64,000 nt of DNA from contig JAYZAL010000011.1 in NCBI GenBank assembly GCA_036339735.1, positions 1 through 64,000 of the forward strand, given 5' to 3'. Both the position numbers and the translations under genes were made by a program. Positions 45,451-50,195 of the stretch are shown one piece after another. A model generated the notes under the pieces. It did not search any database. It saw nothing but the letters and a program-made list of their open reading frames with translations, and was not told the DNA's origin. The DNA is from Candidatus Poribacteria bacterium. GTDB taxonomy: Bacteria > Poribacteria > WGA-4E > UBA9662. Each line of letters begins with the position of its first letter. Within the stretch, counting starts at the first letter, position 1.

Positions 45451-46416
45451 TTAGTCTCGCCAAACAGAATATATCTTACTACCAGATTGTTGCAAAATTG
45501 ATTTAACTGGTTGTAAAAAACGGTTGTCAACCAAATAGGTCTGGGTCGACAAGCTATTACCAACAGCGACGAAATCTCCCTTTGCTCTACCAATCCTCAG
45601 GTTGACGACTGCTTCGTTTGCTACAAAAAACTCAATCTGAAGCGAAATTTCTTCTAACGGCAGTTCTAACTCTTGTTCAATTTTGATTGCATCAATCCCA
45701 AAGAGTAAGTCATCCACTTCTTTTGTCGAAATTGGGATTAATTTGGGTCGCGTCATTTGCCACCCCCCATCCGTTTTTTGACAAATGACTTTGTCTTTGT
45801 CTTTACTGAATTCAATTCGGTTACATGCAATACGTTGAAAATCCAGCAGGCGTTTTTTTGTTTGATCTGCTATTGATTTGCCTCCCAACCGTCGAAATTG
45901 AGAGAGAGGACTATTCAGATCTTGTAAAAGACTAGATTCAACGAGAAAGACAGTTGTTTCTTCTTCAACCTTTAGATATACGGAGTAATCGGCAGCTTTC
46001 ATACCAACGGAAAAGATGATTGGATGAGGAGAATCAGTCCATATTCTTACCTGTGCTTGAGGCGGTTGTAATTGATATTCAAACAGATCAACTATATCCA
46101 ACTCTCGCTTGATTTGTTTTCCCAAAAAATCGGTTAATAACTGGTTAACGGAGTCAGATTTTGCGGGAGCTGGTGAGATACTCATTTCTGAAGATACAAC
46201 CCAACCATCTTCAATTTGAGCCAAACTATAATCTTCAAAATCCGACTTAGGGCTGGTCACCTCAATCTTACGCACAGTGCTGTGTGATAAACGATATCTT
46301 TCGCCTATCGTTTGGGAAGTGAAAACAATTTCCTGTTTTTGAGGCTCAAGCCGAAAATAAATCAGAATGGCCAAAGCAAAAGCGAGAAAAACTGATAAGG
46401 TAGTTTTAAAGCTCAC
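45451..46416 (-). CDS. DUF4340-like membrane-anchored protein
   Basis: N-terminal TM; two repeats of GW..P...V..LL followed by YQLQPP / LRIG..VY. Confidence 0.7.
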   Translation of the reverse strand: MSFKTTLSVFLAFALAILIYFRLEPQKQEIVFTSQTIGERYRLSHSTVRKIEVTSPKSDFEDYSLAQIEDGWVVSSEMSISPAPAKSDSVNQLLTDFLGKQIKRELDIVDLFEYQLQPPQAQVRIWTDSPHPIIFSVGMKAADYSVYLKVEEETTVFLVESSLLQDLNSPLSQFRRLGGKSIADQTKKRLLDFQRIACNRIEFSKDKDKVICQKTDGGWQMTRPKLIPISTKEVDDLLFGIDAIKIEQELELPLEEISLQIEFFVANEAVVNLRIGRAKGDFVAVGNSLSTQTYLVDNRFLQPVKSILQQSGSKIYSVWRD

Positions 46417-46667
46417 TTGTGATTATAAATTATTTTTCAGTGTTCAATGTAGTCAAAGCAGAAAATAACAAAAGAACTTACATGAAGAGGTCGTTCATTG
46501 AAGTACTACTTGTCTGGGAAACTGTCTATTTTCCATACAGTACCCGCGGGGTACTGTAATACGTAACTCTTTAATTCTCAATTCGACCGACCTTGACGTT
46601 GATCACATGAAAATCACACAAATGGAGTTGAGTCATAGTAGATTCCACCTTCAATAAATTTTGAGAG

Positions 46668-47633
46668 CTATCTTTGTGAGCTAAAAAAATCAACCAAATC
46701 AGTTCCGTGTGTTTTGGTGTTCAATTGTTTTTCGATTTTCAAAATTCTCCCCTGCATATCAATGTATACAGCCATTCGTTCGCTAGTCCTACTAGACGCT
46801 TCGTCTGCTGCCCCAAATAACAAGCTCAGATTCCTATCCACATCAACCAACAGTGGAAAATTAAGTCCATCACGGTCAACAAAGCGCCTGTGTGATTCGG
46901 CATCCTGCACCGAAACACCAAACACTTGGATCTCCAAATCATTAATTTGACTCATCTCATCCCGGAGAGAGCAAACCTGCGCCGTTCAGCCAGGAGTCAT
47001 ATCCATAGGATAAAAAGACAAAACCACATTTCGCTTATTTCTAAAATCCCTGAGCCGGTAACCTTTACCATTTTCATCGTAAGCTACGAAATCAGGAGCT
47101 AGGTGGCCAACATTTATCTCATAGCTAGTCATGGACTGGATTGTTTCCAGTACTTCTGTTCCATGTTGTGGAATATTGACATTGTTATTGATAGAGCGAA
47201 CATACCCAGCTCTATCAACAACAAAGGTAGTCCGACTCGACTTTTGTTTGTCAGCTGATATACTGGAATATAATCGAGACACAACCAAATCATTATCAGA
47301 TAGAAGAGGAAACCCAAATCGATATTGCTCCTGAAATTCATAATGAGATTCTTGACTATCACCACTAATACCGTAAACCATGGTTCCTGTTGCTTCAATT
47401 TTTGTCAACTCGTCACGGAGAGACTCGAGTTCAGAAGTTCAACCACCAGTAAAATCTTTAGGGTAAAAAGCTAACACCACGTTCCGTTTTCCCCAGTGCT
47501 GGCTGAGGCTCTGTTTGTTACCAGACCCGTCCTTTAATTGAAAATCAGGCGCAACCATTCCAACGACAACTTCTCCTCCCGCTGTGGGGGAAAGAAGTGT
47601 ATCTCGTCTCTGAGTAACCATCTCTTCTGTCAT
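46668..47633 (-). CDS. Tandem two-domain BCP/PrxQ peroxiredoxin selenoprotein (321 aa, predicted Sec65 and Sec216)
   Basis: Track ORFs 47439-47786, 46986-47408 and 46668-46955 share one frame, separated only by TGA at 47441-47439 and 46988-46986: FYPKDFTGG-U-TSELESLRD and FYPMDMTPG-U-TAQVCSLRD. ATG 47633 has AAGGAG RBS; ends at TAG. Confidence 0.9.
46955..46970 (-). promoter_or_regulatory. Candidate SECIS for second peroxiredoxin UGA
   Basis: TCTC-TC-CGG-GA-T-GAGA bulged hairpin beginning 16 nt after UGA, G-containing loop. Confidence 0.55.
47407..47431 (-). promoter_or_regulatory. Candidate SECIS for first peroxiredoxin UGA
   Basis: CTC-TC-CGT-GA-C-GAG at the same offset as the second site; alternative longer pairing AACTC/GAGTT plus GTC/GAC. 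Confidence 0.5.
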
Positions 47634-47737
47634 TTCAAGCTCCTTTTTTATTAGCTGAATTTTGTCAGCTTCGGAAGTTGATAGAAAAAAAGTAACTAGT
47701 AGAGCATACTTAATACTAATCTTAAAACCTAATGAGA

Positions 47738-47754
47738 TAGAACCACCGGTTCTA
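47738..47754 (-). promoter_or_regulatory. Candidate SECIS for FmdB-like gene
   Basis: Perfect TAGAACC-GGT-GGTTCTA hairpin starting 13 nt after TGA 47769-47767. Confidence 0.65.
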
Positions 47755-47973
47755 GTTTGGAATGGTTCAGCCGACAGGGGTAGCACAGTTGGTTCCCCCT
47801 GAGCTTAGTGAATTGGTAGTTTGACCACAGAAGGTTGAAAGTATCTTTTTGGGGTTAATTGCCCCACACTGAGGGCATTCTAATTTAGCAATTTCCTCAG
47901 TCGTAACATTCATAGGTTGCAATAATTCAAACCGGTCTTGACACTGACTGCATTGATACTCGTAAAGTGGCAT
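47752..47973 (-). CDS. FmdB-family zinc-ribbon protein, probable selenoprotein (73 aa if UGA69 is Sec, otherwise 68 aa)
   Basis: MPLYEYQCSQC..FE..CPQCG..KKILSTF; tail GGTNCATPVG-TGA-TIPN-TAG. Confidence 0.8.
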
Positions 47974-48024
47974 TTTCTTTCTTACTTCCTTATGATATAA
48001 TTCACCCTTGTAGGAGCGGTGGTT

Positions 48025-48054
48025 ATTATAAAGAGAAAGCCACATATATTGCAA
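48025..48054 (-). promoter_or_regulatory. Sigma70-type promoter for the FmdB-peroxiredoxin operon
   Basis: Minus strand TTGCAA-18 nt-TATAAT, about 50 nt upstream of ATG 47973. Confidence 0.6.
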
Positions 48055-48080
48055 AAAAAAGACCAAACAGGAATTAGCCT

Positions 48081-50195
48081 TTGATTAGTTGGTGTTGGCT
48101 ATCGTTTCTTCTGTTTTTTGGGTCGTTTTTTTTGGAATCGAATTCCTCATTGGCAGCTCCCCCCAATCCCTATTTTTTCCTTTCTCATCAATCAGGAAGT
48201 CCCGTCGAGTATTCATCCGATTGGCTTAATCAGGCACCTAAGTTATCATCACACAAGCAGTACTTATCAGCTCTTGATGGATGTTGTTTTCAACGACCTA
48301 CTACGGTTTTGCAACCTGACGGTGTAGAGTTCGTGCTAGCAATTAAAATCGACTTCTCTGACCAGGTGGGATCTCGCCGTGGAAACCAGCTCAACGGATA
48401 CTTATTTGATGACCAAGGAGTTTCTCTAAAAACCTACTACAGAGAAGTATCTTATGGCCAAATGGATGTTCAGCCAGGACCGGCCGAGGGTATAATGCCG
48501 AAAAAAGACCGTTGGGTTCGTGCGAAACACCCAATGTCATACTACGGAGATGGTAAGCATAACGTCGCTCGCTACCGAGAATTAGTACGAGAAGCTTGCC
48601 AAGGCATTGATAAAGAAATTAATTTCGTTGACTATGATCGAAACAAAGATGGAATTATTGACCATTTGTTCATCGTTCACGCTGGAGATGATGAGGCTTC
48701 GACATTTACGGGTACATTTGGACCAAATATATGGTCGGTTTTAGTTCCTAACATCAATACCACCTTTGATGGGGTGAAAATAGATACGGCTGTCTTGGTT
48801 GCTGAAGAACCAAGTTTTAAACATCCCCATTTAGGCATCTATTTTCATGAATTTTTTCACGATTTTGGAGCTCCCGACGTGTATGGTTCACCAATGATCG
48901 ACGCTCGAGATCACAAGTGGGGTTTAATGGGCATGTATGGTCCTTACCAAGGAAATATAACTAATGGTCTTGGGGACGGAATGAATCCCAGCCATATAAT
49001 TGGGTATTTGAAATGGGATTTTGACGCCAGACCAGAAAACGGACGAAAAGGATGGTTGAAACCAACAACGATCACTGAAGATATACTGAATTATTCATTG
49101 CCATGTATCGAATTGAACCCATCTTTACTTAAGATTAAAATTTTGGATCGGCCAGACGAATTTTTTCTGCTAGAGAATCGCCATACCAGATCGGGAGCTA
49201 GATTTGATCGGTATCTGCCTGAGTCCGGACTTCTAATTTGGCATATTGATGAAAGTAAGGTGCGTTCGGCTTACGCTGTTGATGCAGCGCAGCAGATATG
49301 GTTAGAGGATCCAAACGACCCCAACCATATGGGCCAAAGCCCAACTGATCCGAGTCAGAGAAATATGAGTTATATTTCCGACGGTGCGGCGTATTCGGCA
49401 GATGACGAACAAACATCCTTCATGCAATCAACCAACCCGAGCAGTCAGGCTAATGATGGAACACCAACGGGTATTTCAATCACTAACATCAGTCGAGAAG
49501 GTACTATCATGTCGATGAATTTCGCGACAGGAGATACTTACGAGCCTAATAATAATTTTTCTACCGCTTTCCCATTGGAAATTGGGCAGTCATATCCATC
49601 CTTCATTTTTTCATCTAGTGATATTGATTATTACCGTTTTCAGCCGATTGATTCAGCTACTTTACTCTTTCAATTGACAGATATTCCTGAGAATCATAAT
49701 TATCGGTTACAGATTTATGATCAGAACCAAATCTTAATTGCCGAAGGAATAGACCCAGGAGCCTCTTTTTCAGCCAGCCGTCAAGTTGCATATCAAGCAA
49801 AAGCAGGACAAATCCTATATTTGGCTATTCGATCAGAATCGGGATTCAGTCAGCAATTAGCTTATCAAGTCAGTATTCAAAAACTAGTTGGTCAAGTCGG
49901 ACTACTGAATATTGCTAGAATGAAGATCTTCCCCAATCCGGTCTATCTTGGTCGAACCTTGACTTTATCCTATACAATCTCGGATTTTCAGACTGCTGAT
50001 CAGTTAATTTGGGAAATATACACTATGGGCGGGGACTTAATTCACACAGACTTAGAAACCGAAGTAGTGGGTTCTGGCCGTTTTATTTGGGCTGTTAACG
50101 ACACTGCAGCGGGTGTCTATATTCATTCGCTAGTTGCACAAAGAAATGGTGAATCTCATCAAATCAGTGGTAAAATCGCGGTCGTGGGCAACTAG
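48081..50195 (+). CDS. Secreted M6 (immune inhibitor A-like) metalloprotease with PPC-like and C-terminal sorting-like domains
   Basis: YYREVSYG, YDRNKDGIID..VHAG, HEFFHDFGAPD, FLLENR, GLLIWHIDE, DTYEPNN, IFPNP..GVY..GKIAVV. Confidence 0.88.
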   Translation: MISWCWLSFLLFFGSFFLESNSSLAAPPNPYFFLSHQSGSPVEYSSDWLNQAPKLSSHKQYLSALDGCCFQRPTTVLQPDGVEFVLAIKIDFSDQVGSRRGNQLNGYLFDDQGVSLKTYYREVSYGQMDVQPGPAEGIMPKKDRWVRAKHPMSYYGDGKHNVARYRELVREACQGIDKEINFVDYDRNKDGIIDHLFIVHAGDDEASTFTGTFGPNIWSVLVPNINTTFDGVKIDTAVLVAEEPSFKHPHLGIYFHEFFHDFGAPDVYGSPMIDARDHKWGLMGMYGPYQGNITNGLGDGMNPSHIIGYLKWDFDARPENGRKGWLKPTTITEDILNYSLPCIELNPSLLKIKILDRPDEFFLLENRHTRSGARFDRYLPESGLLIWHIDESKVRSAYAVDAAQQIWLEDPNDPNHMGQSPTDPSQRNMSYISDGAAYSADDEQTSFMQSTNPSSQANDGTPTGISITNISREGTIMSMNFATGDTYEPNNNFSTAFPLEIGQSYPSFIFSSSDIDYYRFQPIDSATLLFQLTDIPENHNYRLQIYDQNQILIAEGIDPGASFSASRQVAYQAKAGQILYLAIRSESGFSQQLAYQVSIQKLVGQVGLLNIARMKIFPNPVYLGRTLTLSYTISDFQTADQLIWEIYTMGGDLIHTDLETEVVGSGRFIWAVNDTAAGVYIHSLVAQRNGESHQISGKIAVVGN

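Follow-up and report, generated by a model that had tools for sequence, protein, structure and literature searches.

The window, the whole 64,000-nucleotide stretch of DNA analysed here, is contig C11 of assembly G000, a genome of 4.32 Mb in 107 contigs with 92% completeness and 40.6% GC. Its minus strand carries a coding frame of 321 codons (46668–47633) that runs from an ATG at 47633 to a TAG stop at 46668–46670 and is interrupted only by TGA, once at codon 65 (47439–47441, minus strand) and once at codon 216 (46986–46988, minus strand). Translated with TGA as U, the frame yields 321 residues that depart from table 11 at U65 and U216 alone, as an earlier note on this DNA had proposed from its letters. 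Codon 65 lies in the context FYPKDFTGG-U-TSELESLRD and codon 216 in FYPMDMTPG-U-TAQVCSLRD; in both domains of the protein described below, the TGA falls at the peroxidatic position, where we predict selenocysteine (Sec). The ribosome-binding site that the note had named is also there, a Shine-Dalgarno-like AAGGAG read from the sequence at 47640–47645 (minus strand), 6 nt 5′ of the ATG.

Standard gene calling takes this frame apart. Under table 11 the locus becomes three minus-strand ORFs (47439–47786, 46986–47408 and 46668–46955), and public records of the gene are pieces of 95, 140 and 156 aa, just the kind of fragmentation by annotation pipelines that the note had foreseen. The pieces are named “hypothetical protein [Candidatus Poribacteria bacterium]” or “peroxiredoxin Q/BCP”. 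Database proteins that give the tandem as “full-length” have W or G at both TGA positions, because gene callers applied codes 4 or 25 to short contigs. Cys is absent from either TGA position in all close full-length database relatives (P0002–P0019). The nearest named records, at 90% and 69% protein identity, are Candidatus Poribacteria MAGs, and the locus is found in seawater and marine metagenomes from 13 studies.

The gene lies between a small Zn_ribbon_8 (FmdB-like) ORF just upstream (47767–48066, minus strand) and a gene for a DUF4340 protein downstream (45451–46416, minus strand), with an M6-peptidase-like gene as divergent neighbour (48081–50195, plus strand). None of the neighbours is a thioredoxin or reductase partner, and scanning the surroundings of the gene for promoters and terminators brought no decisive result. 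A perfect, GC-rich palindrome, …CAGTACCCCGCGGGTACTG…, stands about 110 nt past the stop codon, at about 46538–46556 on the minus strand. It lacks a trailing T-run and is missing from the output of the terminator scan; it may be a terminator-like or protein-binding hairpin.

The predicted protein consists of two peroxiredoxin domains fused head to tail. Pfam AhpC-TSA (PF00578) matches two stretches of the 321-residue protein with an E-value of 1.3e-63 (213 bits against a cut-off of 26), Redoxin also matches two stretches, and the NCBIfam thiol peroxidase/BCP model NF006960 passes its cut-off of 140 with 173 bits. Domain 1 (residues 24–147; 47193–47564, minus strand) has the AhpC/TSA fold with P58, T62, U65 and R134. 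Domain 2 (residues 175–306; 46716–47111, minus strand) has an AhpC/TSA/Redoxin fold with P209, T213, U216, C221 and R286. Each domain of the window protein carries the full PxxxTxxU motif, Sec replacing Cys, and its Arg; family f2 has Gly for Thr in the domain 2 motif. The residues G63, G64, C(U)65, T66 and R134 show no variation across 30 sequences.

Comparison with known structures and with Cys-containing homologs places both TGAs at the catalytic position. The best PDB matches of the tandem protein are Bcp1 (3drn) and AhpE. Domain 1 aligns to 3drn and 5enu, with U65 paired to the peroxidatic Cys of the solved BCP 5enu (…TPGCTTE…), while on the side of domain 2 the match is 2ywn, aligned to residues 173–296. 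A metagenomic tandem protein, P0123, has Cys at both sites aligned with U65 and U216, so the Cys/UGA pairing sought in homologs holds for both domains; in other tandems the N-domain is degenerate and the C-domain bears Cys. An AlphaFold2 model built from a 30-sequence alignment (pLDDT 89.1, pTM 0.86) returned single-domain BCP, AhpE and Prx chains exclusively in a Foldseek search, the best folds being Bcp1 (3drn) and AhpE (1xxu) with target-relative TM-scores of 0.85–0.91. The two AhpC-TSA stretches and these fold matches agree with the note's description of each half as a peroxiredoxin domain. By its domain scores and active-site motif the protein is a peroxiredoxin of the BCP/PrxQ subfamily, and its peroxidase activity is predicted on that basis.

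The two domains differ in their second redox residue. C221, encoded at 46971–46973 (minus strand), is the only Cys of the protein and lies five residues past U216, at the resolving-Cys position of CP-x4-CR BCPs; it is Cys in 35 of 35 orthologs. Domain 1 has E70 at the equivalent column, which is Cys in one of the 35, and so lacks a resolving Cys. Domain 2 consequently resembles the CP-x4-CR BCPs, and domain 1 a 1-Cys Prx. Since 1-Cys BCPs also exist, a resolving Cys is not obligatory for the BCP/PrxQ subfamily.

The tandem gene is nearly universal in one order and confined to it among the genomes searched. Of 41 related genomes, G000 counted, 35 contain a full-length match that includes two in-frame TGAs; among 176 from the phylum, 146 have such a match with exactly two TGAs, and every one of the 146 belongs to the window's own order. 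At E ≤ 1e-40, matches occur in 153 of 158 genomes of that order (G000 left out) and in none of 17 genomes from other orders of the phylum. A codon alignment of 35 orthologs at 48–90% identity has TGA at both columns in every sequence, the two TGAs being spaced by 150–151 codons.

Related loci show other arrangements of the same domains. Genome G094 holds a second tandem copy (L056; G094:C108:3432-4304) in which the Sec of domain 1 is replaced by Ser (…FCPTDFLIG-S-T…) and the TGA of domain 2 is kept, a natural half-inactivated variant. Genus g6 has single-domain Sec-BCPs only (…FYPKDFTSG-U-TAEVC…), among them L058 (G024:C1:2031990-2032430), at 56–58% identity to domain 2; they represent the unfused form or else a secondary loss of domain 1.

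Conservation extends along the whole frame. Residues without variation occur in all three segments, before, between and after the TGAs. In four pairs with unsaturated dS, dN/dS is 0.05–0.15 between the TGAs and 0.04–0.15 after the second; three other pairs are saturated in some or all segments, and the closest pair has too few changes in its first segment to be informative. Within the genus, the segment between the TGAs gives 0.12–0.15 (L012 against L013 and L014). Protein-level conservation thus extends downstream of both TGAs, at 0.04–0.15 in all informative pairs.

A decaying pseudogene, or three small independent genes in which the TGAs are true stops, would leave such constraint unexplained. 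That reading can point to the gene callers and NCBI records that split the locus into 95-, 140- and 156-aa entries, and to an additional stop in one sister genome: the G001 ortholog L014 (G001:C4:42904-43866) has an extra in-frame TAA between the TGAs, where the window residue is Q. Against it, 146 genomes, with identities as low as 48%, keep both TGAs at the same codons, other stops and frameshifts are absent from 34 of 35 aligned orthologs, each segment in which dN/dS can be estimated gives 0.04–0.15, and neither the middle nor the last fragment holds a complete Prx fold by itself. Even L014 still has a dN/dS of 0.09–0.12 against the window; its TAA could be a recent nonsense mutation or a MAG consensus error. 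We regard the pseudogene or three-gene reading as effectively refuted.

Sequencing reads uphold both TGAs. Four runs from different studies, one of DNA and three of RNA libraries, contain no variant at 47439–47441 or 46986–46988, and hence neither TGT nor TGC. Contigs from the RNA libraries bridge each TGA, one of 598 nt spanning 46868–47465, although contigs of this kind do not by themselves prove transcription.

TGA is an ordinary stop codon in this genome. Of the 1838 stop-to-stop ORFs in G000 that reach 300 codons or more, 404 (22%) end in TGA, which indicates that the codon is not reassigned. It is also the real stop of three of the 35 tandem orthologs. Three orthologs of family f2 (L036, L038 and L045) terminate in two adjacent TGA codons, so that one mRNA would read UGA twice as Sec and then as stop.

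Most of the machinery for Sec insertion is encoded in G000. The genome has selA (510 bits), selB (a SelB wing domain within a 655-aa frame) and selD (359 bits), the last with one in-frame TGA of its own (…CAG-U-ASK…). Of the four genes whose presence the earlier note had made the next thing to look for, these three are in place and selC is not found in G000. The best Rfam matches there are tRNA-Ser below threshold, ARAGORN lists 34 tRNAs and no SeC, and BLAST of a sister-genome selC against G000 gives no match; at the syntenic region a flank is all that maps (C49, 80% identity), without the tRNA. Yet a tRNA-Sec above the Rfam threshold is present in 40 of 40 relatives, including both same-genus genomes. 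The tRNAs for Glu, Lys, Cys and Ile are missing from G000 too. Because the genome is 92% complete and short of these four tRNAs as well, the absence of selC carries little weight, and the four other missing tRNA types make an assembly gap its likeliest cause.

This inventory bears on a rival reading in which a reassigned code or near-cognate suppression, and not Sec insertion, decodes the UGAs, giving Trp, Gly or Cys. Database gene calls do show W or G at these positions, though they stem from codes 4 or 25 on short contigs, and the search for selC in G000 was negative. The same TGA that would have to be sense terminates 22% of the long ORFs of G000 and three of the 35 orthologs. Both in-frame TGAs occupy the catalytic Cys position, each is followed by RNA constraint of the SECIS type, and selA, selB and selD are present alongside a tRNA-Sec in 40 of 40 relatives. 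We give decoding as an amino acid other than Sec a very slim chance.

The RNA downstream of each TGA is constrained beyond its coding content. Over codons +5 to +12 past the TGAs the normalised codon entropy falls to 0.22, as against 0.82 elsewhere (Mann-Whitney p = 4.5e-10); at site 1 the collapse of synonymous diversity covers codons +6 to +12. The 8-column windows of lowest synonymous diversity in the whole gene all lie directly after the two TGAs. The Leu at +7 is encoded by CTC in 34 of 34 orthologs at site 1 and in 35 of 35 at site 2.

At site 2 this constraint resolves into a well-defined hairpin. SECIS 2 (46944–46977, minus strand; nt 12–45 counted from the U of UGA) has a minimum free energy of −11.0 kcal/mol in the window, with an 8-bp core containing one bulged base, core pair probabilities of 0.98–1.00 and the apical loop CGGGAU at nt 25–30. 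The RNAalifold consensus is a hairpin of nine pairs with one bulge and a CG(G/U)GAU loop. Across the orthologs 97.7% of alignment cells are paired, against 24–47% with slid partners; compensatory changes occur at two pairs, the covariation score exceeds that of all 500 shuffles, and individual MFE folds place the loop at nt 25–30 in 35 of 35. In the extended lower stem 82% of cells pair, with covariation not above the shuffle control.

Site 1 is less uniform. The candidate SECIS 1 (47407–47431, minus strand; nt 11–35 from the U of UGA; −6.2 kcal/mol) consists in the window of 5 bp, a 2-nt bulge and 3 bp under a 7-nt loop ending in GU, with pair probabilities of 0.6–0.85; a register like that of site 2 has a probability of 0.03 there. 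The window fold does not surpass shuffled sequence (z about 0 to +1), and the 35 orthologs share no consensus structure at site 1, where the pairing register varies by clade. With the site 2 register imposed, 78.9% of cells pair, which is not above shuffles, and the register fails in family f2. That family has a stem of its own at site 1, 6–7 bp with an 11-nt loop in 11 of 11 orthologs, in which one pair appears as G-C, C-G and A-U. A loop like that of site 2 is found at site 1 in 13 of 35 orthologs. The window hairpin, at −6.2 kcal/mol, is comparable to the post-TGA hairpins of the selD (−8.3) and single-domain Sec-BCP (−7.7) genes of G000. An Rfam search of 46000–48200 at a permissive E-value gave chance-level snoRNA-like and other matches and returned no SECIS family. 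In the window's genus the first SECIS is weak.

A degraded first SECIS would raise the question of whether ribosomes in this genus mostly stop at codon 65, with the second UGA alone decoded efficiently and a restarted domain 2 as the product. The window's site 1 fold, no better than shuffles, and the 0.03 pair probability of the site 2-like register there both speak for this, as do internal TTG and ATG codons, the domain 2-like single-domain Sec-BCPs of genus g6 and the second copy in G094 with Ser for Sec in domain 1. Yet domain 1 is under purifying selection within the genus (dN/dS 0.12–0.15, L012 against L013 and L014), its catalytic P, T and R are intact, and the first TGA is kept together with the constrained codons after it. 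The 8-bp site 1 hairpin (−6.2 kcal/mol, pair probabilities 0.6–0.85) moreover matches the selD hairpin of G000 in strength. We consider production of domain 2 alone improbable.

The reading we prefer, and hold with high though not full confidence, is a single gene for a 321-residue protein of two fused BCP/PrxQ-type domains with UGA-encoded, predicted Sec at U65 and U216. The double-Sec tandem peroxiredoxin put forward in the earlier note has in its support TGA conservation in 35 of 35 orthologs, the dN/dS values, the pairing of each UGA with Cys in homologs, the RNA constraint and the presence of selA, selB and selD.

G000 and its relatives encode further candidate selenoproteins. Besides selD with its Sec codon (G000:C70:27515-28441), G000 has a single-domain Sec-BCP (…TPG-U-TKQAC…; G000:C37:13075-13500) and a UxxC Prx-like protein (G000:C87:70976-71362), and a small hairpin follows the TGA in each of the three genes. 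The related genomes hold dozens of one-TGA Prx-like and Trx-like matches, by which the order appears rich in selenoproteins. There is also a second, unrelated tandem double-TGA protein in family f3 (L059, G014:C1:1503527-1504372; also G032:C1:655625-656467), with two Prx-like domains bearing …FYRGxxU-PFC… (UxxC) motifs after a hydrophobic leader, a long C-terminal extension and an open frame of 558 aa.

Most orthologs begin with a segment that the window copy seems to lack. In 32 of 35 a strongly hydrophobic leader follows the start codon, which makes export to the cell envelope probable for the family; the leader is absent from the predicted N-terminus of the window copy, of its closest relative L013 and of L031. 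In the window, the frame stays open 5′ of the ATG (47634–47786, minus strand) back to a GTG at 47786 and includes a hydrophobic segment, …KYALLVTFFLSTSEA…, resembling the ortholog leaders. Contigs from the RNA libraries reach across this stretch. That GTG is the only canonical start before the hydrophobic segment, and it overlaps the end of the Zn-ribbon gene. The stretch may provide an alternative start, or it may be what remains of a signal peptide since lost. The start codon that the earlier note had assigned, ATG 47633, is present with its AAGGAG and is probably where the window copy begins, which may place this copy in the cytoplasm; it is maybe not the ancestral start, since the leaders of 32 of 35 orthologs cannot be reached here from a nearby canonical start. 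Many of the orthologs L015–L046 have an in-frame Met just past the leader, about 10 residues before VGM-APDF, and the window ATG is placed comparably. Such a post-leader Met may permit leaderless isoforms.

Translation of the full protein would follow the standard bacterial Sec pathway. SelB with Sec-tRNA(Sec) would bind the small hairpin about 11–45 nt past each UGA, and the ribosome would insert Sec twice into one polypeptide. The two hairpins have an apical core in common (…CUCCG[G/U]GA[U/C]…), and both probably arose by tandem duplication of a Sec-BCP gene together with its SECIS.

Catalysis in each domain would be that of a peroxiredoxin. By analogy with known chemistry, a selenolate placed by the Pro, Thr and Arg would attack the peroxide and become a selenenic acid. 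In domain 2, C221 would resolve this into a U216–C221 selenenylsulfide, as in CP-x4-CR BCPs, and a thioredoxin-like reductant would then regenerate the pair. Domain 1, with E70 in place of a resolving Cys, would have to act like a 1-Cys Prx and might be recycled by an external thiol or by the neighbouring domain.

The tandem protein resembles several known peroxiredoxins and coincides with none. The thioredoxin-dependent BCP/PrxQ thiol peroxidases (NF006960; Bcp1, 3drn; 5enu) have the same fold and the same PxxxTxxC…R active site, but they are single-domain Cys enzymes, whereas the tandem is a head-to-tail fusion with Sec at both sites and no resolving Cys in domain 1. PrxU of Eubacterium acidaminophilum, cited as reference 83 in the 2026 review PMC13188914, is likewise a bacterial Prx with UGA-encoded Sec as its peroxidatic residue (TxxU); it has a single domain and one Sec and belongs to a different Prx subfamily. 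At 98 bits against the equivalog cut-off of 270 of the PrxU model NF040737, the tandem protein is not a PrxU member. AhpE of Mycobacterium tuberculosis (1xxu, 1xvw), a 1-Cys Prx, ranks among the best matches of domain 1 in both sequence and fold and shares its lack of a resolving Cys, yet AhpE uses Cys, has a single domain and forms non-covalent dimers. Closest in layout is the metagenomic protein P0123 (375 aa, 39% identity), with the same two domains and the motif in both halves; it differs in that both of its sites are Cys, not Sec, and each of its domains has CP-x4-CR.

Double selenoproteins are known from bacteria in other families. A table in PMC13188914 lists, among others, MbdU, MduS, an HUGP/GUXX-star fusion and Prx-like UxxC/UxxU oxidoreductases, which have two Sec and redox-type motifs in common with the tandem protein and differ from it, as far as those entries describe them, in family and motif; Prx (PF00578, TxxU) is listed there with one Sec. 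We found no description of a tandem two-Sec peroxiredoxin in the literature searched, part of it available as excerpts, and BSepDB may already list one. NCBIfam release 20 has no model specific to the tandem fusion, and its generic BCP model alone fits. To our knowledge, it is uncommon for a bacterial protein to carry Sec in each of two catalytic domains, with one SECIS per Sec. Sec-peroxiredoxins as such are known; what seems new here is a strongly conserved, mis-annotated tandem with two predicted Sec sites.

A bolder interpretation, which we put forward tentatively and think unlikely, makes the fusion a covalent pseudo-dimer, an intramolecular selenium relay and, in most of the order, an exported selenoperoxidase of the cell envelope. 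The U216/C221 pair of the C-domain would recycle a 1-Sec N-domain that has no resolving residue of its own, and one reductant would then serve two Sec centres. If this holds, the two sister SECIS on one mRNA would also be a natural bacterial system for repeated SelB-dependent recoding.

A double-Sec tandem peroxiredoxin would have consequences for how selenium use is counted and understood. The gene is near-universal in one Poribacteria order and yet is split in databases into three “hypothetical” or partial peroxiredoxin entries, so surveys of selenoproteomes that expect one Sec per Prx may miscount. Its 146 natural sequence variants offer a duplicated SECIS pair for comparison. Together with the many one-TGA Prx-like and Trx-like matches, the tandem suggests heavy investment by these marine and sponge-associated bacteria in a defence against peroxide that is based on selenium.
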